A stretch of 64,000 bases of DNA from Escherichia phage SP27. The stretch's first letter is position 1. Each line of letters opens with the position of its first letter. The position numbers and the translations under genes were made by a program. Below, piece by piece: positions 5,961 through 49,849 of the stretch. The stretch is taken from the sequence record LC494302.1; one strand, 5' to 3'. The notes under the pieces were generated by a model. It made no database searches and had not been told where the DNA came from. It saw only the letters and a program-made list of their open reading frames with translations.

Positions 5961-5974
5961 AACGTTACTTTGTA

Positions 5975-24894: not shown

Positions 24895-24925
24895 AAGGGT
24901 TGGCTTATGCCAACCTTTTTTTTAT
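24895..24925 (+). terminator. intrinsic terminator
   Basis: GGGTTGGC-ttat-GCCAACC plus T8. Confidence 0.65.
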
Positions 24926-31371: not shown

Positions 31372-31604
31372 TACTAAGTTTTGTTGTTGCACTATTGTTT
31401 ATGTTCTATCCTACACTAGTGGCATTAGCCACTAGACGAACGATGGTAGATCTCACTACTGTATTCTTGCTAAACGTGGCATTAGTACTGGTGTCTATTA
31501 TCATTCCAGTGAGCTTTACAGTTATTGATATTATTTCGGTATTACTCTTCGTGTTAAGTTATCTTATGCTTATTGAAGAAACAAATGTTGACAAACGTTC
31601 GTAG
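31362..31604 (+). CDS. small membrane protein
   Basis: 80 aa, two TM helices. Confidence 0.4.
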   Translation: MYLVLSFVVALLFMFYPTLVALATRRTMVDLTTVFLLNVALVLVSIIIPVSFTVIDIISVLLFVLSYLMLIEETNVDKRS

Positions 31605-31615
31605 TACTGTATAAT
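31588..31615 (+). promoter_or_regulatory. sigma70-like early promoter
   Basis: TTGACA ... GTAGTACTG-TATAAT. Confidence 0.5.
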
Positions 31616-32817: not shown

Positions 32818-33192
32818 ATGAAAATTATTTTATTTTTTGTATGTATGTTAATGTGTGGATTGTCATATGCTGAACCATTGGAAGGTTTAGTTTGTACAGA
32901 TGGTAATATTAAACATATCTATCAAGGTGATAGTGACGATCGAGATATTGTATATATTGATGGACAATCATATACGTTTGTTAAAGAGCATACAGTAGGC
33001 GACATTAGCTTCACTGAGTTTTCTAACGACACAGACCCTAACTTCTTAGCGTTTATTGAAGTAGATGTATATGAAGATAGTAATGGCACACAATATGCTA
33101 AATTAGTTATGATGCGTCGTGGTGCTAAAGAAACTAGTTTTGGTGGCTTGTGTAAATATAAGGATTGGTATTATGTTGATTTATCAAAGTGA
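32818..33192 (+). CDS. secreted protein (paralog of 32067)
   Basis: Signal peptide MKIILFFVCMLMCGLSYAEP; GGAGGAAAA RBS. Confidence 0.5.
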   Translation: MKIILFFVCMLMCGLSYAEPLEGLVCTDGNIKHIYQGDSDDRDIVYIDGQSYTFVKEHTVGDISFTEFSNDTDPNFLAFIEVDVYEDSNGTQYAKLVMMRRGAKETSFGGLCKYKDWYYVDLSK

Positions 33193-33355
33193 TAATATTC
33201 GTGTTATGCAGCATCCCTACTTACAAATCTTTGATGTGCAGCAGTATATGGAAGGTGATGACCCAAGAACCTATGGTCGTAAGTATGATTACTTCACTGT
33301 AAAGCAGTGTAAAAATATTAACGAAGTACGACAATTAGTTCAAGAACTTCAAAAC

Positions 33356-33390
33356 AAAGGTTGACTTCGGTCAGCCTTTTTTGTTATAAT
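33356..33390 (+). promoter_or_regulatory. PeSL-like terminator/promoter hybrid
   Basis: AAAGGTTGAC-ttcg-GTCAGCCTTTTTT; TTGACT lies in the stem, TATAAT 18 bp downstream. Confidence 0.6.
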
Positions 33391-33418
33391 TCTCTTAATA
33401 AATTAGAGGATTTTAATT

Positions 33419-33859
33419 ATGTATGTATATCGTTTTGAACTTAAATTTAGTTACATTGAACCTAACTTAGATCCTGCACGAACTGTAGGTCCGTTTGCAC
33501 GGTATTCAACCAGATACAGTACTAAAAATGGATTTGACCGTTTGCTTATGACTACACCTTCTCAATTCCAACCTGAACCAACTGAGGATGGGATCTATTC
33601 AATCAAAAGTGGATGGGTATTTGGCTGTCAAAGTTTGAAAGATTTGTTCAGATTCTTCACTATGGACTTGGGTAAATTGCATCGTGCTGGGTTTGCTATA
33701 TCTGTATATGAAGTTCCAGACCACCATGTAGACATTGGTCGTAATCAGGTTCAGTACTATTGCGGTAGTGCTAAATTAGTTCGTATCATGTCAGTTAAGG
33801 AAGCAAAGGATGAGTTCCGACAAAGTAAAAGAGAAACACATGAGGTAATATATGGATAA
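33419..33859 (+). CDS. hypothetical protein
   Basis: 146 aa, AGAGGA RBS. Confidence 0.5.
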   Translation: MYVYRFELKFSYIEPNLDPARTVGPFARYSTRYSTKNGFDRLLMTTPSQFQPEPTEDGIYSIKSGWVFGCQSLKDLFRFFTMDLGKLHRAGFAISVYEVPDHHVDIGRNQVQYYCGSAKLVRIMSVKEAKDEFRQSKRETHEVIYG

Positions 33860-34196
33860 AACTCAAATAGAATTAAAGAAATTTGTTTCATTCTATCTTC
33901 CTGATGACCCACGTAATTCACAAAAAGATATTGAATATTATAATATCCTATCTAAACAGTTAATGAGAAAGTTTCAACAGTGTTTAACTATATTCAATAC
34001 AGATGGAAGACGTAGATACCGAATCGTTTCAATGAATGATGAAAACGCAAATTTCTTTGATTACGATGTAGTTTTTAGAGCATATAATGATGATCGTATA
34101 AAATTAAATTATGATCAAATTATACTTGACCTGAATGTTATATGTGTTATAATCACTCACGTAGCCGAACTTAATGGTTTTAAAGAATGGTATTGA
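33852..34196 (+). CDS. hypothetical protein
   Basis: 114 aa. Confidence 0.45.
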   Translation: MDKTQIELKKFVSFYLPDDPRNSQKDIEYYNILSKQLMRKFQQCLTIFNTDGRRRYRIVSMNDENANFFDYDVVFRAYNDDRIKLNYDQIILDLNVICVIITHVAELNGFKEWY

Positions 34197-34210
34197 ATAG
34201 AGGATAACAT

Positions 34211-34477
34211 ATGAAGCTTAAATTACAATATAATGGATTTACTTTACGTAATGATACTGAATTTATTAATCGTTCTCCTGGTGCTGAACTGTTTTTACGA
34301 GAGATGAACATTCCTTTCATCATTACTACAGTGGGCGACCGTGAAGTTCTACAATATGCAGAGCATCCGATTATTGATGTTCCTTGGTACTCTGAGCATA
34401 TGTACATGGATATGGCACGTCGCTACAACTGTAAGTTCGTAGTTGAAGGTGATAAAATTACAGTCGAATTTAAATAA
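34211..34477 (+). CDS. hypothetical protein
   Basis: 88 aa, AGAGGATAA RBS. Confidence 0.45.
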   Translation: MKLKLQYNGFTLRNDTEFINRSPGAELFLREMNIPFIITTVGDREVLQYAEHPIIDVPWYSEHMYMDMARRYNCKFVVEGDKITVEFK

Positions 34478-34489
34478 GGTAAATTAAAA

Positions 34490-34783
34490 ATGATCAGTAC
34501 TTCAGTTAATGAAAGCATCGTCGCTGACGTAGAAATGGTTAAAGAATGTGCAGATGAAACTCTTCGTGATATGTACATTAATGATTTAATTACTGAATAC
34601 GGTAGTCGTGGTGTACACGAATTTATTCGTTTAAGTGGAGAGTTGATGAAAAATCGAATTCGTATGAAGCTTAACGTACATCCAAAAGCATGGGCATTTA
34701 CATTAAAATACGCAGAAGATATTGTTAATTTGCGTCGAACTGAAGTATATGAACGTTTGCACAATGGTATGTTAGATAAATGA
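34490..34783 (+). CDS. hypothetical protein
   Basis: 97 aa. Confidence 0.45.
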   Translation: MISTSVNESIVADVEMVKECADETLRDMYINDLITEYGSRGVHEFIRLSGELMKNRIRMKLNVHPKAWAFTLKYAEDIVNLRRTEVYERLHNGMLDK

Positions 34784-34792
34784 TTGTAAAAT

Positions 34793-34819
34793 AGGAATTC
34801 TTAAATGAATTCCTTTTTG
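34793..34819 (+). terminator. intrinsic terminator
   Basis: AGGAATTC-ttaaat-GAATTCCT plus T5. Confidence 0.55.
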
Positions 34820-34835
34820 TTTATAAGGTATAGTA

Positions 34836-35057
34836 ATGAAATATATAGTACTTGTACTGATATTATTCAGTACTGTTGTAAGTGCTAAACAAAAAGAATA
34901 TGTTAAATGTATAAATTATGAAGAGAAATATGTTGAAACATATAAAAAAAGTATAATTAAAAACGTTTCGATTACTAACAGAGCAACAATCATTGTACTT
35001 AAAAATGGGTTAATTATGCTATATAAACCACACGTTAAATGTGAAATTATTAATTGA
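34836..35057 (+). CDS. secreted small protein
   Basis: Signal peptide MKYIVLVLILFSTVVSA. Confidence 0.4.
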   Translation: MKYIVLVLILFSTVVSAKQKEYVKCINYEEKYVETYKKSIIKNVSITNRATIIVLKNGLIMLYKPHVKCEIIN

Positions 35058-35064
35058 GGAAATT

Positions 35065-35637
35065 ATGAATCGTAAAGGTCGTTTTAAAGTATCAAAAAAG
35101 AACAAAAGTTCTAGGTTTAAACCTATTGTTTTAACAGTTAAATCTAACAAAGATTTAACTGCACTTAGTAAAAAGATAATTTCATCTAAGATTGAAGTAT
35201 CATACGTAAATTCATTAAAATATATGAATGTCAAACCACTGGACCAACTCATTTCACTTATATTTGAACGTAATGATTTTGAGATATCAGTAGATGATTA
35301 TAGAGCCTATAATGCTGGTTTCATTAATGTTACTTGTAATAAAAAACTAACTGAGTTGGAAAATTTGTCATGTATAATAAATCTAGATAAAGGTGTTGTG
35401 AAGTACCATTTTGTACATTTCACTAATATCAATAATGGAATGGGTGTACAATCCAGACCTATAGTGCCTACGTGTGATGTTACTAAATTAGCAAAGCTCA
35501 ATGATGAAGAATATTTTCAAGAAAGCATTGTAACTGAGCATTTAGATGATATAATAGCTACTTACAAAGAATGCATATGGGTGTTGAATGCTATAAAACC
35601 TAAATTGTGTTTAATGAATATTGTTCGTGATTTATGA
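35065..35637 (+). CDS. hypothetical protein, FQ-motif family
   Basis: Start at MNRKG after GAGGAAA; NDEEYFQESIVTEHLDD near C-terminus. Confidence 0.5.
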   Translation: MNRKGRFKVSKKNKSSRFKPIVLTVKSNKDLTALSKKIISSKIEVSYVNSLKYMNVKPLDQLISLIFERNDFEISVDDYRAYNAGFINVTCNKKLTELENLSCIINLDKGVVKYHFVHFTNINNGMGVQSRPIVPTCDVTKLAKLNDEEYFQESIVTEHLDDIIATYKECIWVLNAIKPKLCLMNIVRDL

Positions 35638-35650
35638 ATGGGGAATCGTA

Positions 35651-36094
35651 ATGAGTTGGGTAAATGTTAATAGTATTGAACTTAACGAACAAGATATTTT
35701 TGCATTTGTAAATTTAACTAATAACACAGTACTAAAAGGGCGTTTGTTCAGTGCTAGTGATGGGTACAAATGGATCTCTTTGATGGATGATAGTGGTGTG
35801 ATTTATAATGTAATGCAATTACCCCAATGGGTATATAGTAACACTGCTGACGATGTTCTTACCGCAGTTATGCGTGAGTTTGAAAAACTCCCAGGTGGTG
35901 ATATCAAAAACAAAGTTTTTAATGCAGAACGTAAAAATTATACAGCACAGCAGTTGGAATCCGTTGCCATTGCTGCTTATCAAGCTGCTATTAAGAAGCC
36001 AGAGTGCGTTATTCTTAAGTATGTACCAGACTTAAAACTTACGTTGGAAGACATGGATGCATTCATTTTTACATCTGAACTTGATCAGTACTAA
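35651..36094 (+). CDS. hypothetical protein
   Basis: Start at MSWVNVN; 147 aa. Confidence 0.5.
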   Translation: MSWVNVNSIELNEQDIFAFVNLTNNTVLKGRLFSASDGYKWISLMDDSGVIYNVMQLPQWVYSNTADDVLTAVMREFEKLPGGDIKNKVFNAERKNYTAQQLESVAIAAYQAAIKKPECVILKYVPDLKLTLEDMDAFIFTSELDQY

Positions 36095-36210
36095 TTTAAC
36101 TTTGGGACAACCATTCTTATTATGATATAATGTTTTATGTCATTCGATATAAATGACAAACGGAACTATAAATATTATAGTAAAATTTATCTCTTATAGG
36201 AGTTATAAAA

Positions 36211-36594
36211 ATGGTTGATAAATGGAATAAGAAAGATCCATCACATGATGTTGATATTTCTGGTCTAGACAATGCACATAAGCACAAGTATCTAGATTCA
36301 CTAGGTCTTCTAAAACCAGACCAAAGTCTTGCACATGATCGTCCATCCCGTGAAAAAGCATTTAGCCTAGAATCACTAGGTCATGAGCTTAATCGTGTGT
36401 TTGAGGATCACCCAATCTATGTACGTGATATTATCGAGAAACTTAAAGTAACTCCTAAAGAGCACTTTAAAGCAACTGTACACTCTGCATTCCGTGCATT
36501 ACATGAATCTCTAAAGAAAACTCACAATCTTCGTAAAATTCATGATGAAATCGTGAATGCAATCGAAAGTGAAAAACATAAGTTCAAGAAGTAA
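36211..36594 (+). CDS. hypothetical protein (SLGLL-motif, paralogous domain with 36840)
   Basis: 127 aa, TAGGAG RBS; motif YLDSLGLLKPDQ. Confidence 0.5.
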   Translation: MVDKWNKKDPSHDVDISGLDNAHKHKYLDSLGLLKPDQSLAHDRPSREKAFSLESLGHELNRVFEDHPIYVRDIIEKLKVTPKEHFKATVHSAFRALHESLKKTHNLRKIHDEIVNAIESEKHKFKK

Positions 36595-36597
36595 TAA

Positions 36598-36632
36598 AAA
36601 GGGTTGACTAAGGTCAGCCCTTTGTTGTATCA
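36598..36632 (+). promoter_or_regulatory. PeSL-like terminator/promoter hybrid (variant loop)
   Basis: AAAGGGTTGAC-taag-GTCAGCCCTTTG; weaker -10. Confidence 0.5.
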
Positions 36633-36662
36633 TAACTTCTCAATATAACTGAGGTATCATAT

Positions 36663-36776
36663 ATGCAAGGTTTAAAATTTGTAGTTGCTGCACTCATCGC
36701 CGCAGTACTGGTTGGTGGTGTATTCTATGTAGTGGATCAAAAAGTAAATCCACCTGCACAAGAACAATCTAAGTAA
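36663..36776 (+). CDS. small single-TM protein
   Basis: 37 aa ORF MQGLKFVVAALIAAVLVGGVFYVV, bracketed by two PeSL elements. Confidence 0.3.
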   Translation: MQGLKFVVAALIAAVLVGGVFYVVDQKVNPPAQEQSK

Positions 36777-36782
36777 CAAAAT

Positions 36783-36815
36783 AAGGTTGACTTCGGTCAG
36801 CCTTTTCTTTATACT
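36783..36815 (+). promoter_or_regulatory. PeSL-like terminator/promoter hybrid
   Basis: AAGGTTGAC-ttcg-GTCAGCCTTTT; TTGACT-17-TATACT. Confidence 0.6.
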
Positions 36816-36839
36816 ATAAATATAGACATAGAGAAAAAA

Positions 36840-38117
36840 ATGAAATCTATGGAGAGAAATCAAATGCCAAGTAATTTTACTGATAAAAATGGTGGTAACA
36901 TGGCTGGTCACTCTGATAAATGGAGTGAACGCAACCGCCGTCCAAATAGTTATCAAGCAGGTCAAGGTTCACGTGGATCACGTAACCAAGGAACTGGTCT
37001 AGCTGGTAAAGCAAACGCAGAAGCAGGTGAAGTTAAGAGTACTGAGAACATGACTGAGCTAGAAAAGCTACGTTATGTTAATTCATTGGGACTTCTTAAT
37101 GCTACACAAAAACAACGCCTAGCTGATATGGAACGTGAAGAAAAAGAAAAGTCTGCTCCTGCGAAAGAAGAACCAAAACAAGAAGCACCAAAGGCGGTTA
37201 ACCCTGTCAAAGAACTGTCTGATAAGTTAGGTAAGATTTTTGCTAATAAACCACAACTTATCCAAGGTATTGTGAAAGAATTGCAATCTGTACCTAAAGA
37301 AGAATTAAAAGTCAAAGCACAAGCTGTGCTTGATGCAATGAGTGGAAATACCAGTACTGAACCAACTGAAGTATTCAGTACTATAATGCGTGCACTTGAA
37401 GGTACGCAACAAGGTGATGTGCCTGCACAAGAGGAAGTAAGTCTTGAAAGCGTACTTAAAACATTTGATAGTATTGGTAAAGAAGACCGTGCTAATGCTC
37501 AACAAGTTAAGAATGTACTAGCTAAGTTAGAAAACCGTCTGGAAGGTAAAGACGATAAGATTAAATTAGTATCTGATGCAGTTAACGATGCACTTAAATC
37601 TTATGTACAAGGTGAAAAGAGTCGTTTTGTAACTGCAATGGATGCTGCATTCAATACTATGAAAAAGTATGAAGCTGATCATGGTGAGAAGGTTACACGA
37701 GATGGTTATCTGATGCGTGATGATGAAGAAGGTGCAGTAGAACAGAACGATGTTCATTCAGACGAAGAAATTGATGACATGGAAGCTGAACTGTCACAAG
37801 ACCGCCAAATGACTGAAAAATCCCATAACGAACTACAGAAATTAATGCAATGGGTTGCAGATGTTGGTGAAAAAGCTGGTGCTGATAAGAAGAGTATAAA
37901 TCGAAATCTTAGTTGGATTAAAGATAAAGTTGGTAACAACGCTCGTAAACTACAAAAAGCGTGGACTGATGTAGTGAATGGTGCTGTTGATATTGATGTT
38001 GAATCCGGTGAGGCATATGATTATGCATTGACTACACTTGATGACTCTTTCCGTGATTACGAAAATGGAAATGTAACTCCTTGGGAAAAGGACATCATGA
38101 GCAAATACGGTAAATGA
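36840..38117 (+). CDS. hypothetical protein, K/E/Q-rich (SLGLL motif)
   Basis: 425 aa; low-complexity basic N-terminus, LRYVNSLGLLNATQ motif, charged helical body. Confidence 0.55.
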   Translation: MKSMERNQMPSNFTDKNGGNMAGHSDKWSERNRRPNSYQAGQGSRGSRNQGTGLAGKANAEAGEVKSTENMTELEKLRYVNSLGLLNATQKQRLADMEREEKEKSAPAKEEPKQEAPKAVNPVKELSDKLGKIFANKPQLIQGIVKELQSVPKEELKVKAQAVLDAMSGNTSTEPTEVFSTIMRALEGTQQGDVPAQEEVSLESVLKTFDSIGKEDRANAQQVKNVLAKLENRLEGKDDKIKLVSDAVNDALKSYVQGEKSRFVTAMDAAFNTMKKYEADHGEKVTRDGYLMRDDEEGAVEQNDVHSDEEIDDMEAELSQDRQMTEKSHNELQKLMQWVADVGEKAGADKKSINRNLSWIKDKVGNNARKLQKAWTDVVNGAVDIDVESGEAYDYALTTLDDSFRDYENGNVTPWEKDIMSKYGK

Positions 38118-38123
38118 TAAAAC

Positions 38124-38160
38124 AAAAGGTTGACTTCGGTCAGCCTTTTTTTGTAAATAC
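38124..38160 (+). promoter_or_regulatory. PeSL-like terminator/promoter hybrid
   Basis: AAAAGGTTGAC-ttcg-GTCAGCCTTTTTTT. Confidence 0.55.
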
Positions 38161-38188
38161 AAAAGAGGAATTAAGAAGAGGGATTACA

Positions 38189-38440
38189 ATGAAAAAATAT
38201 ATTATATTTGGAATTGTATTATTTTCCAGTACTGCTTATGGTGCAGATTATCATTGCTCCGTAGCAAGGCAGGATTTCAGAAATGGGGAGTTCTATACTA
38301 CCTCATACACAAAAGGAATAATACACGACACCGACAGAACTATTGGATTTAATGCGTTTGACAACAAAGATTCATATACTTCAGGTATACTATCTGAGCG
38401 TAAGACTGATGTAATGGGAATAGAAAAAGAGTTTCGGTGA
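38189..38440 (+). CDS. secreted small protein
   Basis: Start at MKKYIIFGIVLFSSTAYGADY; upstream in-frame codons are the PeSL itself. Confidence 0.45.
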   Translation: MKKYIIFGIVLFSSTAYGADYHCSVARQDFRNGEFYTTSYTKGIIHDTDRTIGFNAFDNKDSYTSGILSERKTDVMGIEKEFR

Positions 38441-38444
38441 TTCC

Positions 38445-38774
38445 GTGGCAATGTGTAATGACATTGAAAGTACTAAAACAATTTATTATAATAATGAACG
38501 TAACTATCGTTTTCATAATTTAACCACAAATAAAAGTTTACTATTTTACAATTGTAAAGAAGTAATACTCCCATCAGACAATAGCTGTACTCCAACTAAT
38601 CAACCCCCAGCACAATGTAATACTCCCTCTGAACCTGATAAAAATAAAAAAGACAAAGATAAAGATAAAAAAGAAGACAAAAAACCTTTAAAAGATAAAA
38701 AGAAAGATAAAAAACCTAATCCGTTTAAAAATAATAAACCAGCACAACCCGATATGACGTGTAAAATAAAATAA
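38445..38774 (+). CDS. lysine-rich hypothetical protein
   Basis: 109 aa with KDKDKDKKEDKKPLKDKKKDKK tract. Confidence 0.35.
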   Translation: MAMCNDIESTKTIYYNNERNYRFHNLTTNKSLLFYNCKEVILPSDNSCTPTNQPPAQCNTPSEPDKNKKDKDKDKKEDKKPLKDKKKDKKPNPFKNNKPAQPDMTCKIK

Positions 38775-38783
38775 GGATATATA

Positions 38784-39203
38784 ATGAAAAAGATTTTTTT
38801 AAGTATTATTTTAGTACTTTTTAGTTTTAATGTATATGCAGCAGATGCTAAACAGGTTGCTAATACAGTAAAAGATGTTATAGTAGACAATGCTCCTACC
38901 TTAGAGGAAATTGGGGTAAAAACTTGTGATATAGTAATATATAATTTAGTTAATGATGAACGAGTTATGTTGAATACGTATGAACAAGTAGTCCCATTGG
39001 TTGAATCTGGTGATGCTTTTAGCTTTACATATAAAGTTAAATTAACAGGAGGGGTTGAAGTTAATCTTGACATTGATACCGCTTCAGTACTAAAAGATAA
39101 ACTAGGATATGTGTTCAATCGTATTCGTGAAGAAGGTCATCTTAAGTATGTTTATGAAAGTAAAATACTAAAACGTGCAATAGTTATAGAAAACTGTAAA
39201 TGA
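38784..39203 (+). CDS. secreted protein
   Basis: Signal peptide MKKIFLSIILVLFSFNVYAADA; AAGGATATA RBS. Confidence 0.5.
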   Translation: MKKIFLSIILVLFSFNVYAADAKQVANTVKDVIVDNAPTLEEIGVKTCDIVIYNLVNDERVMLNTYEQVVPLVESGDAFSFTYKVKLTGGVEVNLDIDTASVLKDKLGYVFNRIREEGHLKYVYESKILKRAIVIENCK

Positions 39204-39207
39204 TAAT

Positions 39208-39244
39208 AAAAGGGTTGACTTCGGTCAGCCTTTTTTGTTATGAT
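39208..39244 (+). promoter_or_regulatory. PeSL-like terminator/promoter hybrid
   Basis: AAAAGGGTTGAC-ttcg-GTCAGCCTTTTTT; TTGACT-18-TATGAT. Confidence 0.6.
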
Positions 39245-39272
39245 GTTGATATTAACTACAGAGGATAAAGTA

Positions 39273-39914
39273 ATGACTAAGCAAGAAATATTCAAAACTT
39301 TAATTGACATTTTGCGTCCATCAAAAACTCGTTGTGCGATGGAGTTTGATATTCCTTATGCTGAACGCGTAATCTTTCCACAAGTTAAAGCTGCTGGACT
39401 TACTTTGCTTGGAATGGGGATGTACTCTGTAGTAGTTGAACATAAAAACTATCCTGGACGAGCATTTAAAGTAACCACTTCACGCTGGGATGGTTTTCGT
39501 GCTTATGCAAAGTACTGCATTGAAAACGCAGGAACCAAGTTTCTTCCAGTGATCTACAGTGCCAACGAACAAGGAAACTTTGGATGGTATGAGATGGACA
39601 AGTACTATCCTATAATTAAACAAAAAAATAATTATGATGACTTTGTTAGTACTAAAATTGGAGATTTATATTCTTATGCACATGCTGGTCAGTACGCTAC
39701 TTCAGTGAATGATATGCGTGGAAATTCTGAAGAGATTGCTATTGCGACGGTCGCTGCTAACATCATGAAAGAGTTTCACGGGCGTTTTGTACCAGACATT
39801 CATTCAAGTAATGTAATGATGGATAAAGATGGGAATGTATTCATTACTGATCCTCTTTCGTGTGATGTGCGTAGAGAAATACCAATTACTGAAGAAGATC
39901 CAGTTTTTTATTGA
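39273..39914 (+). CDS. atypical kinase-like protein (tentative)
   Basis: Start at MTKQEIF after GAGGATAAAG; DIHSSNVMMDKDGNVFITDP resembles HxDxxxxN catalytic loop and metal-binding D of APH/choline-kinase-like kinases. Confidence 0.4.
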   Translation: MTKQEIFKTLIDILRPSKTRCAMEFDIPYAERVIFPQVKAAGLTLLGMGMYSVVVEHKNYPGRAFKVTTSRWDGFRAYAKYCIENAGTKFLPVIYSANEQGNFGWYEMDKYYPIIKQKNNYDDFVSTKIGDLYSYAHAGQYATSVNDMRGNSEEIAIATVAANIMKEFHGRFVPDIHSSNVMMDKDGNVFITDPLSCDVRREIPITEEDPVFY

Positions 39915-39975
39915 CAGAACTGATGTTCTGATGTATTCTTAATAAACCATAAAAATTGCGGTAAAGGATAAAATC

Positions 39976-40257
39976 ATGCGTTCATTTGAAAACTTAATAG
40001 GTAAGCATCTTTTATCTGAAATTGATGCAGACGTTAAAGAATTATCCAAATCAAAAAGTTACATTCATTTGGATGAACTATTTGTTAAGTACGGTGAGAT
40101 TGGTTTTAAGTCATTATTTGTTTTTACTATGAAAGTACATAGTTTAAAGTACTTCGATTTGAGTGCTAAAGATGGTGAACCGAATCTATATTACATGTAT
40201 TACCTTAAGAACAAAGATGAAGCTAATACATTACTCTCTGAATATATATTGGGGTAA
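39976..40257 (+). CDS. hypothetical protein
   Basis: 93 aa, AAAGGATAAA RBS. Confidence 0.4.
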   Translation: MRSFENLIGKHLLSEIDADVKELSKSKSYIHLDELFVKYGEIGFKSLFVFTMKVHSLKYFDLSAKDGEPNLYYMYYLKNKDEANTLLSEYILG

Positions 40258-40259
40258 AA

Positions 40260-40598
40260 ATGGAACAATATTTTGAATTAATAAACAAAGTATCATTTTA
40301 TGTAGTATCTTTGGTTTGGGTGTATTATATGTTTTGCTACATTATTGCATTCTTCCGATACACTACTTTATATGAACGTATCTACTATGATGCCCCAATT
40401 TCATTCTTGATGTTTTGTGCATGTACGTGGGGAATATTAGAAGTACTGATATGTGGGTATAGTACTGATGAATTAAATCTGGTATCGGTCTTGACTGGGT
40501 TTTCATTTGTTGTTATGATAGCTGCCGTTCCAGTATGGTTGTTCTTTGGACTAGTTCATCGCATTGATATATGGCGTTCTAATATCCCTGAAAAGTAA
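40260..40598 (+). CDS. small multi-TM protein, array A member 1
   Basis: 112 aa, 3-4 TM helices, basic tail RSNIPEK. Confidence 0.5.
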   Translation: MEQYFELINKVSFYVVSLVWVYYMFCYIIAFFRYTTLYERIYYDAPISFLMFCACTWGILEVLICGYSTDELNLVSVLTGFSFVVMIAAVPVWLFFGLVHRIDIWRSNIPEK

Positions 40599-40607
40599 GG
40601 ATTGGTA

Positions 40608-40949
40608 ATGATTTATTACACTAACATGTTTGCCTATGCTGTTGCTTGCATTTACATTGTTTACTTCTTATTTGGTGGAGTACTGTGCTTCTTTAAGTAC
40701 AAAACGTTGTTCAACCGAATGTACCCAAATCATCCAATTGTAGTTGTACTTTTGATTCTTTCAGTTTCTCAAATAATCGTTGAAACTACAATGGGTATCA
40801 GTAGTGTACATTATAGTTTTGGTACTATAGTAATTATTACTATGCTTATTGCATACATTTTAGTACTTGGATATGGTATCTTTGGTAATATTGGTATGAA
40901 AATGTATCATCGAATTAAAACATTACGTGATAATCTACCGGAGCGTTGA
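40608..40949 (+). CDS. small multi-TM protein, array A member 2
   Basis: Paralog; tail LRDNLPER. Confidence 0.5.
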   Translation: MIYYTNMFAYAVACIYIVYFLFGGVLCFFKYKTLFNRMYPNHPIVVVLLILSVSQIIVETTMGISSVHYSFGTIVIITMLIAYILVLGYGIFGNIGMKMYHRIKTLRDNLPER

Positions 40950-40950
40950 T

Positions 40951-41295
40951 ATGTATAATTTGAACCTAATCTCATATATTATAACAACACTGTTTACATT
41001 CTATGCCTTTGTTGGTATAATCCTACTGTACTTTAAATTTTATAAAGTGTTTAACCGTTTCTATCCTTCAATGGAGAATGAGTTTTTCTTTGTGTTGTAC
41101 GTATGTTACACATTCATGGCTACATGTTTCACTGTAGTCGATGGTGTCATCGGCATTAAAACTGCTGCACCAAATGGTAGTACGCTGGTTGCATTTATTC
41201 TTACCGGATTCCTTGCAACTTATATTGCCTTCATTGCAACATGGTCAGTGGTTGAATTTCTCTTGCGACTACGAAAGAATATGCCGAATCGATAG
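40951..41295 (+). CDS. small multi-TM protein, array A member 3
   Basis: Paralog; tail LRKNMPNR; TGATATG coupling. Confidence 0.5.
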   Translation: MYNLNLISYIITTLFTFYAFVGIILLYFKFYKVFNRFYPSMENEFFFVLYVCYTFMATCFTVVDGVIGIKTAAPNGSTLVAFILTGFLATYIAFIATWSVVEFLLRLRKNMPNR

Positions 41296-41304
41296 GAGAC
41301 ATAT

Positions 41305-41559
41305 ATGTTTGCATTGCGTAACAAAAACACTAAAGAAATATTATGTTTAGATACCGTATGGGATTGTGCGGGATCAACTACAGTTCTTGAAGAAGGAACT
41401 GGATATTGCGTGTTTGTTGTACATGATAGGAATGAACTCGAATTATTACTTGCTGAGTTCAATGCTGGTGGTAATCCTAACAGTACTGAATACCCTGAGA
41501 TTATCAATCCAGCACCACCAGGCTCTTATGAAATTCTACAACTGTGGGAGTTGAAGTAA
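41305..41559 (+). CDS. hypothetical protein
   Basis: 84 aa, AGGAGACA RBS. Confidence 0.45.
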   Translation: MFALRNKNTKEILCLDTVWDCAGSTTVLEEGTGYCVFVVHDRNELELLLAEFNAGGNPNSTEYPEIINPAPPGSYEILQLWELK

Positions 41560-41939
41560 TGCGTCAAATGCACAAAGTAACCGAGCTAAACAAGCGTCTG
41601 GTTAAACAATCAATGTTCGAGGATAAAGAGTCTTATTATAACTTTAAACGTGCAGTAGAGGCTGCTATCCACATTCAGAAGCTTAAAGAACGTGGTTGTA
41701 TTATTCTGGAAAATGGTTCGGAAGTTGTAACGGATGACTTTAGTGTAGCGTTTGATGTTTCACCTGACGGGACGCTATCAATGCCCCGCTTAGGAACTGG
41801 AAACATGACTGTTTGGGTTGGCTTCACTATGGGGAATGTACCTGGTACTGTGTACGTAGATGATGCGGAATTGAAAGACAGTTTCAAAAACTTATCGTAC
41901 CTTGAACCACAATACGCACATGAAATGAATTTATTTTGA
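41559..41939 (+). CDS. hypothetical protein
   Basis: Start at MRQMH, TAATG-coupled. Confidence 0.45.
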   Translation: MRQMHKVTELNKRLVKQSMFEDKESYYNFKRAVEAAIHIQKLKERGCIILENGSEVVTDDFSVAFDVSPDGTLSMPRLGTGNMTVWVGFTMGNVPGTVYVDDAELKDSFKNLSYLEPQYAHEMNLF

Positions 41940-41940
41940 G

Positions 41941-41969
41941 TTGACAAACACATTCAGTACTGTATAATG
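41941..41969 (+). promoter_or_regulatory. sigma70-like early promoter with CAGTACTG spacer
   Basis: TTGACA-aacacatTCAGTACTG-TATAAT. Confidence 0.55.
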
Positions 41970-42015
41970 TTTATCAAGGGGATGAACTTCTCATCCCCAC
42001 AATCGAGGAATTGTC

Positions 42016-42570
42016 ATGATTACTTTTAAGAAAACTGCTAACCACATCCATGAAATCTACATTAACGGTCACAAAGCTGGCCTTCTTCGTTTACTCGCCC
42101 ATCACCCTGATGCTACCGTATCTGATAATGAACCTAAAGATTGGCGTGTCTTTTTCTTTGGAAAGTACAGTGATTTTCAAGTATCAAACCTGAAGAACAT
42201 TCGTTCAGTATGCACGTTAACTGAAATTAAAGAAAAGTTAGCACAAGCATTGAAAACTAATCCAGATGGTGTTCTTCCACCTGATAACTTTGTAGAGAAA
42301 GGTTATGCCTTAGCTCATTTCAAAGATGGTACTATTCAATCTATCAGTACTGAATATGAATATCATTGGACTGAGTACTTCACTTATGGTTCGAGTAATA
42401 CATTGATGGATTCACGTAGTAAATTGGAAGAAGTACTGACTCGTATGAATGAACGCGAGCGTCAGTTATATGACAAACCAGAAATGTGGAGTTCAACTTA
42501 CATTGACCGTATTGACTATGTTATTATGACTCCAATCTTTGACACTGCTTACTATGATTCTTTGAAATAA
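42016..42570 (+). CDS. hypothetical protein
   Basis: 184 aa, GAGGAA RBS. Confidence 0.5.
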   Translation: MITFKKTANHIHEIYINGHKAGLLRLLAHHPDATVSDNEPKDWRVFFFGKYSDFQVSNLKNIRSVCTLTEIKEKLAQALKTNPDGVLPPDNFVEKGYALAHFKDGTIQSISTEYEYHWTEYFTYGSSNTLMDSRSKLEEVLTRMNERERQLYDKPEMWSSTYIDRIDYVIMTPIFDTAYYDSLK

Positions 42571-42581
42571 GGATAACTTAT

Positions 42582-42758
42582 ATGAAACTACGTACTCGTA
42601 ATCGACTGATGGATGCACTGTACCATGAACAGCTTTCACTGAATGAAGTGAAGCGTCAGTTAATGTACACATATCAGTTTCCCGCTCGCATTGCAAAACA
42701 ACGTGCTAAAGAATTGCTGAAAGAAGCAATAGAGTACTGGGAATCTGATTCGTACTAA
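42582..42758 (+). CDS. hypothetical small protein
   Basis: 58 aa basic ORF, AAGGATAA RBS. Confidence 0.3.
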   Translation: MKLRTRNRLMDALYHEQLSLNEVKRQLMYTYQFPARIAKQRAKELLKEAIEYWESDSY

Positions 42759-42797
42759 TATTACGTGATATGTCACGTTAATTAAGTGAGGCGATAA

Positions 42798-43049
42798 ATG
42801 AAAATATTATTAGTTCTAATACTACTAATAGTTTTACCATTTACTTTAGTATCCCCTGGACTTGCATGGAATGTATTTGTGTACTTAGTATGTACTATTG
42901 TAGTAAATGGTATCTTGTTCTTAGTTCTATTCATAAATGGAATAGGACACGGTGGAGGATGGACCAGTACTGCTGATATCGTACATAAAACCACTATGTC
43001 TTTATTTGTAATGTGGAATTTGTTCTGGACTTGGTTTGTGTTCTTCTAA
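42798..43049 (+). CDS. small membrane protein
   Basis: 83 aa, three hydrophobic helices, GTGAGGCG RBS. Confidence 0.4.
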   Translation: MKILLVLILLIVLPFTLVSPGLAWNVFVYLVCTIVVNGILFLVLFINGIGHGGGWTSTADIVHKTTMSLFVMWNLFWTWFVFF

Positions 43050-43057
43050 TTAAAAAT

Positions 43058-43429
43058 ATGAATATAGATTTGAAAGGTGCAACCCGAACTGTTATCCTCA
43101 TTGGGGAATACGCTATCAAGATTCCAACCTTCAAAAGCTGGAAGTTATTCCTAACTGGAATGATAGCTAACCTCAATGAACGTTCATGGATGCAGTACTC
43201 CAATCGTAGTGATAGTGGTATCTGCCCTACTTTGTGGTCATCATGTACAGGACTAGTAACTGTACAGAAACGTTGTAAGCCAGTTCAACATAGGGGTTTA
43301 TTTTGGGTGGAGTTGTGTGCTTTAGCATTGAATTCAGAGTTAAGTACTGACTTCTTTTATTCAGATGCGAAGCCAGAAAACTTTGGTTATCTGAATGGTA
43401 AGTTAGTTAAACTTGATTATGGAGATTAA
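43058..43429 (+). CDS. truncated eukaryotic-like protein-kinase-fold protein
   Basis: GEYAIKIP (VAIK-like), SDAKPENFG (HRDxKPEN-like), KLVKLDYG (DFG-like); ORF stops two residues after DYG. Confidence 0.5.
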   Translation: MNIDLKGATRTVILIGEYAIKIPTFKSWKLFLTGMIANLNERSWMQYSNRSDSGICPTLWSSCTGLVTVQKRCKPVQHRGLFWVELCALALNSELSTDFFYSDAKPENFGYLNGKLVKLDYGD

Positions 43430-43430
43430 G

Positions 43431-43700
43431 ATGTACGCACTGTATAATAAAGAAAAGAAACGATTTGCTAAGGTTGAAATTTCGATTGATACCTTTGATA
43501 TGTTGGAGTACTGTATTGTGACGGACCTATATGCTAACTTGTATTACGTTCTTGATGACGTATCAGTACTGCAACGATTGCTTGAGAATTCCAAAAGTCA
43601 ATGCCAGGGCATCCATGATGGTTCATCTTATGAAACACCTGAGTGTTCCTACGGCTATCTGGACGGGTATGAGATTGTGAAGTTGGGGATTGTTGAATAA
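43431..43700 (+). CDS. hypothetical protein
   Basis: 89 aa, follows kinase-like ORF. Confidence 0.4.
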   Translation: MYALYNKEKKRFAKVEISIDTFDMLEYCIVTDLYANLYYVLDDVSVLQRLLENSKSQCQGIHDGSSYETPECSYGYLDGYEIVKLGIVE

Positions 43701-43703
43701 AGA

Positions 43704-43739
43704 AAAGGGTTGACTACGGTCAGCCCTTTTTGCTATAAT
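43704..43739 (+). promoter_or_regulatory. PeSL-like terminator/promoter hybrid
   Basis: AAAAGGGTTGAC-tacg-GTCAGCCCTTTTT; TTGACT-18-TATAAT. Confidence 0.65.
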
Positions 43740-43767
43740 CATTTCATCGAAACGAGAGGATGAATAC

Positions 43768-44283
43768 ATGACACGCATTAACTTAGTACACGTTAAAGAA
43801 CTTGCTGACCAACATCTGATGGCTGAATATCGTGAACTCCCACGTGTATTTGGTGCTGTACAAAAACACGTTCAAGCACGTAAGCGTGTACGTGATTTCA
43901 AAATTAACAGTACTTATCTGTTAGGTTCAGGTCATGTGACATTCTTTTACGACAAGTTGCTGTACTTACAGAAGCGTCATATCGATATTGTTAACGAATG
44001 TTTGCGTCGTGGTATGAAGATTCAAAACACTGAAGTAAACGACATTAGCGGCTTCCCTGCTGAGTTTTGTAATGACTACGTACCAACGGAGTCAGAGATT
44101 AAAATGTCTCGTGATCGTTTGATTGAGAAGCTCCAGATGAAGCCTACGTGGTATAAGTTTACTGATGTTGAATGTCCACAGTACGTTAAAGATATGCAGA
44201 ACGTAAGTAGTAAGAACGAATCTAGTACTGATATGTTCGACGAAATTGAAGAACAAATCAAAGATGAAATGAATAATTATTAA
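43768..44283 (+). CDS. denV: endonuclease V (pyrimidine-dimer DNA glycosylase/AP lyase)
   Basis: [50 protein letters not shown] matches T4 endonuclease V as I recall it over most of its length. Confidence 0.8.
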
Positions 44284-44287
44284 AGGA

Positions 44288-44304
44288 AAGGGTTGACTTC
44301 GGTT
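44288..44304 (+). repeat. truncated PeSL remnant (5' arm only)
   Basis: AAGGGTTGACTTCGGTT then unrelated sequence. Confidence 0.45.
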
Positions 44305-44321
44305 ACACAAAGGAACATAAC

Positions 44322-44516
44322 ATGTTATTAGTATATTCAACGCGTTTCTGGATTTCTTTTATTGTACTATCGCTAATCGGCTTCGGTTTGAGTATACTCT
44401 TTTCGTGGGATGAATTGGGTACATGGTATTATGAAGTCCCGTGGTACATGAAGATAGCTCCTTGTTATGCGGCATTGTTCGTGTCATTCCTTATTGTTGT
44501 CTTCAGCGAGGATTAG
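44322..44516 (+). CDS. small membrane protein
   Basis: 64 aa; PWYMK motif shared with array B member at 46911. Confidence 0.4.
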   Translation: MLLVYSTRFWISFIVLSLIGFGLSILFSWDELGTWYYEVPWYMKIAPCYAALFVSFLIVVFSED

Positions 44517-44622
44517 TTGATGTAGTATGTGCTACACCAAAGTATTTGGATATTTTAGATATAAACATTGACACCTGTTATATCTTTCTGTATTATGTAC
44601 ATCACCAAATGAGGAATACAAC

Positions 44623-44982
44623 ATGGCATCTTTAAGTGAAATCGCAGAATACAACCCACTAACAATCTCAACAATTCAACGTACAAAAACTTTTTATTTC
44701 CGTCCTGCTGATGGATGGAAACGTGGAATGAATGGTGACTATCGAGTACTGGAAGATTCACTAATCGAGCGTATCAACTCTGAACTACAGAAGTATGAAG
44801 GTGTTAAAGTTGTGCGTTCAACTTCTCGTTATTTTGAGTACTACATTGAGTCTTCAACTGTAAATGAAAACTCATCATTATCGGTGGACAACACTGATAT
44901 TCTTCGTAATGCAGTTGGTATGTTATGCAACATTGCAGAAGAAATGGGATTAACTATTAGTACTATGAGTGAGTTGGAATAA
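44623..44982 (+). CDS. hypothetical protein
   Basis: 119 aa, GAGGAATA RBS. Confidence 0.5.
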   Translation: MASLSEIAEYNPLTISTIQRTKTFYFRPADGWKRGMNGDYRVLEDSLIERINSELQKYEGVKVVRSTSRYFEYYIESSTVNENSSLSVDNTDILRNAVGMLCNIAEEMGLTISTMSELE

Positions 44983-44984
44983 CA

Positions 44985-45020
44985 TAAAGGGTTGACTTCG
45001 GTCAGCCCTTTTTGCTATAA
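44985..45020 (+). promoter_or_regulatory. PeSL-like terminator/promoter hybrid
   Basis: AAAGGGTTGAC-ttcg-GTCAGCCCTTTTT; TTGACT-18-TATAAT. Confidence 0.65.
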
Positions 45021-45049
45021 TTATTTCATCAACTGAAGAGGGTAAAGAA

Positions 45050-45820
45050 ATGACCAGAGAAGCACGCAGCATTCAAATTCAGAAAAACTTCAACTCCATG
45101 ATGGTTGCTCTTGAGTGTTTGCTCGATGATAGCAGTACTGTAAAAAGTATGGTTGTCAGTGGTGCTCCTGGTGTTGGTAAGACTTACACCTTGTCCCAAC
45201 GTCTCCAGAAGGCTCATGACGCAGCAGAATGGAACGTAGCTACTATCAGTGGTAAGATGACTACACTGGCTCTGTACGAAGTTCTGTACAAGAATCGTCA
45301 CAGCACCAACGTGTTAGTACTGGATGATATGGACAGCATCTTTGATTCTGAAGACGGTATGAACCTGCTCAAAGCTGTTTTGGATAGTGGTAAGCGTACT
45401 GTATCTTATATGACTAGCTCTAAGTACTTGAGCACTAACGGCATTCCTAATAGCTTTGATTTTAATGGTCGCATCGTATTCATTACTAACAAAGATTTAG
45501 CGTTAGATGCTAAAGCTAAAACTAAAATGTCTGCTCATTATGCTGCTCTTATGTCTCGTTCTGTGTACGTGGATTTACAGATTCAGACTAAAAGTGATAT
45601 CATGATTCATATTGAAAATGTAATGACTAAGACTAATATCCTTGCATCTAAAGGTGTTAACAGTAACGGTAGTAAAGCAATTCTGAACTGGATGTTAAAA
45701 CATGAAGATAATCTTCGTGCACCATCCCTGCGTATGCCTTTGTTGATTTCAGCAGTATATAACAACAATCCGTATGATTGGGAAGAACAATGTGAAAACT
45801 TGTTCCTTGAGAAAATCTAA
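45050..45820 (+). CDS. P-loop NTPase (AAA+-like)
   Basis: Walker A GAPGVGKT, Walker B-like VLVLDDMD. Confidence 0.55.
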   Translation: MTREARSIQIQKNFNSMMVALECLLDDSSTVKSMVVSGAPGVGKTYTLSQRLQKAHDAAEWNVATISGKMTTLALYEVLYKNRHSTNVLVLDDMDSIFDSEDGMNLLKAVLDSGKRTVSYMTSSKYLSTNGIPNSFDFNGRIVFITNKDLALDAKAKTKMSAHYAALMSRSVYVDLQIQTKSDIMIHIENVMTKTNILASKGVNSNGSKAILNWMLKHEDNLRAPSLRMPLLISAVYNNNPYDWEEQCENLFLEKI

Positions 45821-45829
45821 TTACATATG

Positions 45830-45861
45830 TTGACAGTACTACCATAGTGTAGTACTATAAC
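45830..45861 (+). promoter_or_regulatory. promoter-like element
   Basis: TTGACAGTACT ... GTAGTACTATAAC; -10 ambiguous. Confidence 0.35.
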
Positions 45862-45887
45862 TTAATATTCACCACCGGAGATACGAT

Positions 45888-46229
45888 ATGCTTGAGTTTT
45901 TTAATTCAGATACAATGCTTGGTATCACGCTAATTTACATGTTTGTATTCTTGTTTTATCATTCAATTGTAATTAGTCTTTGGTATTTTAAAAGGAAAGT
46001 TGTTTTTAAATTGTATTCGTATGATAATGTACTCTTAGTAGTATATAGCATTATACAAGGTGGGTTTATTTTATTTGGTGTGATGACATATGTGATTTAC
46101 ATGTTACAAATTGATAATACACCACACATTACACAATATGTTGTGTTTTCAGGACTAATCGTCTGGTTATTGGTGTGTACTCTGTATTTTATTATTAAAG
46201 CTCGTGATAACTTTAAATGGGGATTCTAA
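45888..46229 (+). CDS. small multi-TM protein, array B member 1
   Basis: MLEFFNSDTMLGITLIYMF; 113 aa. Confidence 0.5.
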   Translation: MLEFFNSDTMLGITLIYMFVFLFYHSIVISLWYFKRKVVFKLYSYDNVLLVVYSIIQGGFILFGVMTYVIYMLQIDNTPHITQYVVFSGLIVWLLVCTLYFIIKARDNFKWGF

Positions 46230-46567
46230 TGTTAGAATTTTTTAAATCAGATACAATGATTAGTATTACTTTGATTTATCTGTTTGGTTTTTTCTTTTAT
46301 CATGCACTAGTTGTAGTACTATGGTATTTTAAAAAGAAAATTGTTTTTAAACTGTATCCAGTGAGGAATTCATCACTAGTTCTTTACACACTTGTTCAAG
46401 GTTTGTTTGCAATTGTTGGTCTTATGGCACACTTAATTTATTGTGCCAATCCTCACTTGAACTCAATCTCACAATATATTGTATTCTTTGGGTTGTTCAT
46501 TTGGTTAGTTGTATACTTAATCCATCTCATTATTCATGGTAGAGATAAAATTCGCGGAGACTTCTAA
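46229..46567 (+). CDS. small multi-TM protein, array B member 2
   Basis: MLEFFKSDTMISITLIYLF, clear paralog; TAATG coupling. Confidence 0.5.
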   Translation: MLEFFKSDTMISITLIYLFGFFFYHALVVVLWYFKKKIVFKLYPVRNSSLVLYTLVQGLFAIVGLMAHLIYCANPHLNSISQYIVFFGLFIWLVVYLIHLIIHGRDKIRGDF

Positions 46568-49776: not shown

Positions 49777-49849
49777 TTGTATCCTCCAAATGTAAATCGT
49801 TATTATATTTAGGACAAAAAAATGCCAGTACAAGGCACTGGCATAAAAT
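49777..49849 (-). promoter_or_regulatory. array cassette (diverged)
   Basis: Hairpin GCCAGTGCCTTGTACTGGC, TATAAT, GGAGGA RBS. Confidence 0.45.

Follow-up and report, generated by a model that had tools for sequence, protein, structure and literature searches.

A stretch of 64,000 nucleotides from Escherichia phage SP27 (LC494302.1), referred to below as the window, carries eight copies of a short hairpin-forming element, all of them located between 33.3 and 45.0 kb. The small genes at ~1-49 kb of the window lie on the + strand, and the majority have no known function; most of the ten proteins tested from the region of the elements match only families of unknown function. Genes near the elements include those for a T7 gp0.7-like protein kinase, the denV product (Pyr_excise), a P-loop ATPase-like protein and two 'virion structural protein' paralogues with an SLGLL motif. 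Positions 33000-46000 of the window share 97-98% identity with the jumbo coliphages E9.1, SHEFM2K, phAPEC6, slurp01, UB, 121Q and PBECO4, members of the genus Asteriusvirus with genomes of ~350 kb; the record taxonomy (Caudoviricetes; Asteriusvirus) does not place them in the Straboviridae.

Copies and anatomy of the element

The 18-nt core GGTTGACTnnGGTCAGCC (also written GGTTGACnnnnGTCAGCC) is found as an exact match at seven positions of the + strand: 33359, 36602, 36785, 38128, 39213, 43708 and 44990. An eighth copy, at 44291, has three mismatches to the core; it retains the 5' arm and the loop of the hairpin but is missing the 3' arm. These eight matches compare with 0.12 expected in dinucleotide-preserving shuffles. 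Numbered by position, the copies are referred to as E1 to E8, the truncated one being E7. The initial annotation of this DNA had reported that a hairpin recurs from 33356 to 44985, with a half-copy at 44288, and this recurrence was borne out by the seven exact cores and the truncated copy; the positions that it gave are the starts of A-runs, correct to within 1-3 nt. When the eight copies are aligned, as that annotation proposed, together with flanks of 40-70 nt, conservation is limited to the core and the -10 region. The flanks are unrelated, so the copies represent neither a segmental duplication nor remnants of duplicated genes. The intervals between successive elements contain, in order, eight genes, one 37-codon open reading frame (ORF), one gene (417 aa), three genes, 12 genes, one gene (denV) and two genes. 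The view that the elements bracket single genes is thus only partly right, the units ranging from a 37-codon ORF to 12 genes.

The full copies share the same order of parts, namely the TAA or TGA stop codon of the upstream gene, an A-run, the 5' arm (A/G)GGTTGAC, a 4-base loop, the 3' arm GTCAGCC(C/T), a T-run, (TG)n, a -10 hexamer, a leader, GAGG and ATG. Each of them is located between the upstream stop codon and the next ribosome-binding site in the orientation of the genes, with a leader of ~20-30 nt between the -10 hexamer and GAGG. The loop is UUCG in five of the seven full copies, UACG in one and UAAG in another, and the hairpins are followed by T-runs of 4-7. TTGACT, correctly assigned to the stem in the initial annotation, sits in the 5' arm: this -35 hexamer is formed by the end of the arm and the first base of the loop. 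The first T of TTGAC pairs with a G, so that the hairpin is complete only in the sense-strand RNA. The folding energies of the seven full copies range from -12.4 to -19.7 kcal/mol (z from -4.1 to -6.3), a stability reached by none of 200 shuffles; E7, at -1.7 kcal/mol, folds no better than its shuffles and has no -10.

At a distance of 18 nt from the -35, the -10 hexamer is TATAAT with TGn in the copies at 33359, 43708 and 44990, TATGAT with TGn in the copy at 39213, and TATCAT in the copy at 36602, while the copy at 36785 has TATACT at 17 nt. The TGn motif is present in four of the six copies whose -10 matches the consensus in at least four of six positions. The earlier claim of a -10-like hexamer 17-18 bp downstream stands for these six of the seven full copies but fails for the half-copy, which has none, and for E4 (38128). 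Because the hexamer at the -10 position of E4 is merely TAAATA (3/6), this copy is probably a terminator with weak or little promoter activity, or a terminator only; judged by what it retains, E7 is a dead remnant. The consensus of the proximal UP element is AAAAAARNR, and AAAAAAGGG, located immediately 5' of the -35, is taken here to match it. If AAAAAAGGG is an UP element, nearly all bases of the element would serve both the promoter and the terminator.

Copies were also collected from the genomes of eleven relatives and 39 IMG/VR loci with the exact 18-mer (~50 loci), and removal of copies with similar flanks left 121. Of these 121 non-redundant copies, 89 have a hexamer with at least five of six matches to TATAAT at a distance of 16-19 nt from the -35, as opposed to 0, 9, 1 and 12 copies at the control offsets of 6-9, 26-29, 36-39 and 46-49 nt, respectively. 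After the -10, the leader CATCGAAAC or CATCAAC is common to many of the collected copies. In an alignment of 68 sequences, 97% of the stem cells are paired; as the search pattern admitted only pair-preserving bases at three inner positions of the 3' arm, only the outer pairs give an unbiased test of covariation. The outermost pair is GC in 47 sequences, AU in 13, UA in two and GU in six, and it is unpaired in none; the G-C pair is therefore swapped for A-U or U-A in 15 of the 68.

Gene blocks at the elements in related phages

Seventy elements from eleven relatives (G17, E9.1, UE-S1, SHEFM2K, phAPEC6, UB, 121Q, SD-15_S21, ph0011, fEgEco12 and CMSTMSU) were aligned with their flanks, and each flank was scored for identity against the flanks in the window. 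This comparison of synteny, which the initial annotation had suggested as a check, revealed that blocks bounded by the elements have been acquired, lost or exchanged among relatives, with chimeric elements at the junctions. In UE-S1 and ph0011, a single element has the left flank of E2 (identity of 0.91 and 0.85, respectively) and the right flank of E3 (0.95 and 0.97), and the 183-bp E2-E3 interval is gone. Elsewhere, the E2-E3 slot contains a 774-bp gene (UB) or three small genes (fEgEco12 and CMSTMSU). Likewise, UE-S1 and ph0011 have a single element with the left flank of E4 and the right flank of E5, and the three genes at 38189-39203 are missing. In fEgEco12, a full element is flanked on the left by the end of denV (1.00) and on the right by the start of the 256-aa gene (0.92). 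The two-gene block 44322-44982 is missing from this phage, as well as from ph0011 and CMSTMSU; in ph0011, a blastn chain shows a 683-bp deletion from E7 to E8, and a full element is joined directly to the 256-aa gene. Also in ph0011, two elements enclose a block of four genes 5' of denV, one of which encodes a DNA methyltransferase.

The E8 slot is empty in the window and in UE-S1, where a single element lies between the 119-aa and 256-aa genes. In G17, E9.1, phAPEC6, 121Q, SHEFM2K and UB, it is filled with a variable insert of 1.4-2.3 kb between two elements, and SD-15 has a 294-bp insert. The six filled slots read E8-left/novel-right, cassette, novel-left/E8-right, where the window reads E8-left/E8-right. 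Each of the six inserts begins with a 240-bp gene, followed by differing cargo: an HNH endonuclease gene, a gene for a GIY-YIG-like 'exonuclease ABC C subunit', a RaK2_00499-like gene, or others. The 240-bp gene has one of two alternative leaders after the -10, E8-like (CATCAACACAAGAGG) or E6-like (TATCGAAACGAGAGG), which separate loci L001 (8219) and L007 (15223) from L002 (13758), L004 (14412), L005 (13713) and L006 (15025). This split suggests that sequence was swapped between copies of the element.

At E6, an HNH gene is present in fEgEco12, UB and ph0011 (L010 13165-13578, L006 13554-13748 and L009 10983-11396, respectively), and HNH remnants of 78-86 bp are present in E9.1, SHEFM2K and phAPEC6 (L002 12406-12531, L004 and L005); the gene is absent from the corresponding window position, 43693-43708. 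In most relatives, the size variation at E6 looks like homing-endonuclease traffic rather than recombination from element to element.

Synteny is broken in at least one of the 11 relatives at seven of the eight element junctions, compared to 10 of the 31 other junctions (Fisher p = 0.0125). We regard these statistics as suggestive of shuffling at the elements and the chimeric junctions as the stronger argument.

Most probably, the elements are composite regulatory cassettes of the promoter-early stem-loop (PeSL) type within a variable region of early genes in an Asteriusvirus jumbo phage. Within approximately 50 bp, the same bases would encode two overlapping signals. As RNA, the A-run, the 8-13 bp hairpin and the T-run would form an intrinsic terminator for transcription coming in from upstream. 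As DNA, the same bases would form a host sigma-70 promoter, with the A-run at the position of the UP element, a 17-18 nt spacer made up of the loop, the 3' arm and the T-run, and TGn-TATAAT next to it. With terminator and promoter on the same bases, units of one to a dozen small genes would be insulated from their neighbours and expressed separately. The boundaries of the units share one sequence in one orientation, so that recombination between two copies could delete, insert or swap the enclosed block and leave the expression of neighbouring genes undisturbed; possible routes are recombination at short homologies, template switching and a circular intermediate of the kind proposed for PeSLs. 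The anatomy of the elements, their folding energies, the conservation of a -10 at fixed spacing and the chimeric junctions of relatives are direct observations. We infer the promoter, terminator and recombination activities of the elements, the role of host RNA polymerase in termination and initiation, and the mechanism of recombination from sequence. The earlier proposal of a composite terminator/promoter that marks gene-shuffling units agrees with the data on every point that sequence can address, except for E4, which is a weak promoter at best, and the remnant E7.

Several observations weigh against the PeSL reading, and some of them favor the rather unlikely alternative that the elements are purely regulatory, with changes of gene content clustering at them as operon boundaries tolerate indels or homing endonucleases insert there, and do not serve as recombination substrates. 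HNH and GIY-YIG-like genes are found beside E6 and within the E8 cassettes of relatives: the HNH gene was inserted right 5' of the E6 hairpin without a second element, and endonuclease genes are common cargo of the E8 slot. The enrichment of breaks is not significant when spacer length is controlled (7/8 versus 4/9 junctions with spacers of at least 35 nt, p = 0.13), ten element-free junctions are broken too, and several indels of the region fall at element-free junctions or within the 417-aa gene. Exact runs shared between the window copies are just 8-29 nt, which is short for classical homologous recombination, so that any recombination must use short homology or template switching. In addition, E4 lacks a convincing -10. 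However, each of the four clean events (E2/E3, E4/E5, E7/E8 and the empty E8 slot) left one element with its left flank from one copy and its right flank from the next, endonuclease genes are absent from the E4-E5 and E7-E8 blocks, and the 240-bp gene of the E8 slot occurs with two versions of its 5' leader, each of which matches the leader of another element.

The 7-4-7 inverted repeat might also serve chiefly as an operator in DNA, to which a dimeric regulator of the phage would bind and so cover the -35 and shut off early promoters, with the RNA hairpin being incidental. The repeat does overlap the -35, and its stem sequence is near-invariant rather than freely covarying, but the invariance of the inner stem is already accounted for by the constraint of the -35. 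The imperfection of the repeat pairs only as sense-strand RNA (U.G in 63 of 68 copies), a T-run always comes next, C-G-closed UUCG and UACG tetraloops are favored and the outer pairs covary, all of which makes an operator highly improbable. The initial annotation had itself raised the possibility of unrelated ordinary terminators with coincidental similarity. A -35 inside a compact, strong hairpin leaves few sequence solutions, and some convergence is plausible; nevertheless, resemblance by chance or by convergence within one genome is contradicted by the counts to the point of being hardly credible. The 18-mer is identical in seven copies versus 0.12 expected, homology runs past the -10 into the leader (ATTTCATCRA), other + strand terminators of the window have quite different stems, and the 24-mer AGGGTTGACTTCGGTCAGCCCTTT, recurrent in phages, has just eight occurrences among 185,579 species genomes of bacteria and archaea, most of them in contigs of metagenome-assembled genomes.

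The jumbo phages of the RaK2/121Q group have hundreds of unknown small early genes; if the elements act as PeSLs, they would provide a concrete unit of exchange with predictable breakpoints. As a compact natural terminator plus promoter part, they could also be used in phage engineering for the insertion of genes that spares neighbouring expression.

Distribution of the element and other features of the window

Matches to the 48-nt element were found in 329 phage records. The number of copies per genome is 7-10 in Asteriusvirus, 14-15 in RaK2, K64-1 and fENko-Kae01, 11 in CBB, 10 in Muenster, 7 in GAP32, 7 in XbC2 (Mimasvirus) and 4-5 in Erwinia jumbo phages. The 348-kb genome of 121Q has seven exact cores, six of them in the homologous stretch of ~14 kb. 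Vibrio phages of the 250-kb class, presumably KVP40-like, have 4-5 copies that are 81-91% identical to the 48-nt element of the window. Aeromonas phage 65 (Straboviridae by record taxonomy) and Cronobacter phage CR9 (Vequintavirinae) have a single copy each. The layout of stop codon, element and next gene is also seen in Aeromonas phage 65, CR9, XbC2 and D525. The gene downstream of the element varies by genus: upstream of the 126-aa gene at 41559, an element is present in RaK2 and two metagenomic jumbo phages and absent in the window, and denV is preceded by one in the window and CBB but not in RaK2. At L021 1965 (121Q, outside the window), L012, L028, L035 and L048, the element is followed by a conserved non-coding stretch (...CATTGGCAGATA...CCCAYWGGGTGC...) with no ORF, which may be a small RNA transcribed from the promoter of the element; no such stretch or possible small RNA was found 3' of the elements when we looked for it in the window.

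It is conceivable, though on balance doubtful, that this ~28-50-nt element with its identical 18-24-mer core is a common portable linker through which unrelated phages exchange ready-to-express cassettes, an integrase-free analogue of the integron, and not a design reached independently. The lineages concerned are large virulent phages of gamma-proteobacteria: RaK2-like jumbo phages (Asteriusvirus, RaK2/K64-1, Mimasvirus, CBB and the Erwinia jumbo phages), Straboviridae and Vequintavirinae. The presence of the same core in several phage families, along with its near absence from bacteria, raises the question of whether regulatory linkers can carry genes between unrelated phages, and the choice between exchange and convergence of a near-identical core across families is the question with more potential.

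Table 1. Elements of the window and the blocks between them
Feature	Coordinates	Strand	Composition	Energy (kcal/mol)	Setting
E1	33351..33390	+	hairpin 33356-33379; TTGACT 33361-33366; UUCG loop; T-run; TGn and TATAAT to 33390	-14.0 (z -5.4)	63-aa ORF upstream, 146-aa ORF downstream
E2	36593..36633	+	hairpin 36598-36623; UAAG loop; TTGACT-18-TATCAT	-17.6	3' of 127-aa virion-protein gene (SLGLL motif)
E2-E3 variable slot	36634..36782	+	in the window, 37-codon hydrophobic ORF 36663-36776		
E3	36778..36815	+	hairpin 36783-36804; TTGACT-17-TATACT	-12.4	5' of 417-aa virion-protein gene 36864-38117
E4	38119..38159	+	hairpin 38124-38149 and 7-T run; TAAATA (3/6) at -10 position	-14.3	
E4-E5 three-gene cassette	38189..39203	+	products of 83, 107 and 139 aa		
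E5	39204..39244	+	hairpin 39208-39235; TTGACT-18-TGn-TATGAT	-15.7	5' of T7 gp0.7-like protein kinase gene 39273-39914
E6	43699..43739	+	hairpin 43702-43731; UACG loop; TTGACT-18-TGn-TATAAT	-19.7	5' of denV 43768-44283
E7	44288..44311	+	truncated: 5' arm and loop, without 3' arm, T-run and -10	-1.7 (no fold)	
E7-E8 two-gene block	44322..44982	+	products of 64 and 119 aa		
E8	44981..45040	+	hairpin 44986-45011; TTGACT-18-TGn-TATAAT to 45021; conserved ATTTCATCAAC leader	-18.3	5' of 256-aa P-loop ATPase-like gene

The two virion-protein paralogues, 36211-36594 and 36864-38117, both match PHROG 16530 and both contain SLGLL. The longer one has indels of ~300 bp in relatives (around 37404-37426 and 37752-37807) and a large internal deletion in SD-15. 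Between them, the E2-E3 interval is predicted to yield a promoter-to-terminator transcript of ~150 nt that encodes a 37-residue hydrophobic peptide (36663-36776). An Rfam scan of 30-49 kb gave a hit to the MicX small RNA (RF01808) at 36587-36811, which we rejected; it scored 27.3 bits against a threshold of 75, and only the hairpins of E2 and E3 align. Nothing else was found in that scan.

Two perfect sigma-70 promoters without hairpins, at 31588-31615 and 41941-41968 (TTGACA-16-TATAAT), are similar to each other (TTGACAAAC-N7-AGTACTGTATAATG) and appear to be a second class of early promoters in the same gene block. Such stand-alone consensus promoters fit transcription by the host sigma-70 polymerase. 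The + strand hairpins at 5974, 14115, 17943, 24895, 34793 and 48222 were considered as further composites and rejected, having other stems and no -35/-10 in register. The one at 24895-24918, AAGGGTTGGC-TTAT-GCCAACCTTT with an 8-T run, is core-like (GGTTGGC...GCCAACC), with three mismatches, TTGGCT for TTGACT and no -10 in register, and may be a diverged relative of the element or an unrelated terminator.

Away from the elements, adjacent paralogues of 113 and 112 aa (MLEFF...) are encoded at 45888-46567, and just one of them is present in E9.1, phAPEC6, SD-15, fEgEco12 and CMSTMSU; this difference is a change in the copy number of tandem paralogues. On the minus strand, at 49800-63974, there are approximately twelve tandem paralogues of 250-430 aa that start with MLPFGRM... 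and match PHROG 4219, 'regulator of chromosome condensation'/RCC1-like. Ten of them are preceded by a second conserved cassette, consisting of the hairpin GCCAGTAC-n-GTACTGGC followed by TTTCTTATTTGTATTAAATATAGTATAATGAATAAAGGAGG, and the TAAATA/TATAAT in it is possibly a late-type promoter or one with only a -10. The repeat extends into the coding sequence, so that this is a case of tandem gene duplication.

Comparison with known systems

PeSLs were described in RB49 and phi1 as strong sigma-70-like promoters joined to terminating stem-loops that cluster in hyperplastic regions and flank indels; they form five subclasses, one of which has a stem overlapping the -35, and their promoter activity, terminator activity and mini-circles were demonstrated experimentally (Arbiol et al. 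2010, PMC2839356). Like them, the elements of the window combine a predicted sigma-70-type early promoter with a predicted stem-loop terminator between a stop codon and a Shine-Dalgarno sequence, have an AT-rich stretch upstream, and occur in many copies in variable regions of small ORFans, where they flank insertions, deletions and replacements between close relatives. In contrast to the polyG-loop-polyC core of RB49 and phi1, with a spacing of 17 nt, the core here is GGGTTGAC-UUCG-GTCAGCCC, with a spacing of 18 nt and TGn. Instead of several subclasses there is one architecture, with the -35 inside the 5' arm, and it is known from sequence alone. The hosts of the repeats differ as well, T4-like Straboviridae there and an Asteriusvirus jumbo phage here. 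Among the papers listed for the term PeSL in the literature library that was searched, none concerns the RaK2/121Q group. The 63-aa gene upstream of E1 was considered as a tie to the published PeSLs, having homologues in RB49, rV5-like and T7-like phages, and was rejected, as the RB49 copy lies among closely spaced genes that leave no space for a PeSL.

In Comeau et al. (2014, PMC4122927), PeSLs are extended to PST/T4 and nt-1/KVP40, the nt-1 stem is given as A3-4 G3 - loop - C3 T3-4, and degraded 'half' PeSLs are described near indels. The elements of the window have the same flank composition as this stem consensus, and the copy at 44291 resembles such a 'half' PeSL. By the published consensus, the nt-1/KVP40 stem-loop is located just upstream of the promoter and the -35 is TTGYVH, whereas here an invariant TTGAC lies in the stem.

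Individual copies have been annotated before. The CBB terminators Torf515, Torf518 and Torf520 (GGGTTGACTTCGGTCAGCCCTTT...) have the same sequence as the element (Buttimer et al. 2017, PMC5259590), and orthologous sites in the G17 and UE-S1 records are annotated as ARNold terminators. Those annotations are of terminators only; the promoter half, the repeat family and the link to gene shuffling are absent from them. By analogy only, the elements also resemble the attC sites of integron cassettes, which are structured, repeated boundaries that delimit exchangeable gene units. Unlike in integrons, no integrase or site-specific recombinase is evident here, and each unit has its own predicted promoter and terminator.

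With regard to the features by which PeSLs are defined, promoter boxes ~17 nt apart are present on sequence in six of the seven full copies and in 89 of the 121 copies across phages, and a stable stem-loop that adjoins or overlaps the promoter is indicated by folding, T-runs and pairing. The elements are intergenic, between the stop codon and the Shine-Dalgarno sequence plus ATG, and follow the orientation of the genes; they are numerous in a variable region whose small genes are mostly unknown; and indels and replacements between relatives are bounded by them. The initial annotation had called the elements PeSL-like with reference to T4-type phages. The PeSL assignment is consistent with every defining feature that can be tested in this way, but the phage is an Asteriusvirus and not of the T4 type, a difference that reflects where PeSLs were first found and not how they work.

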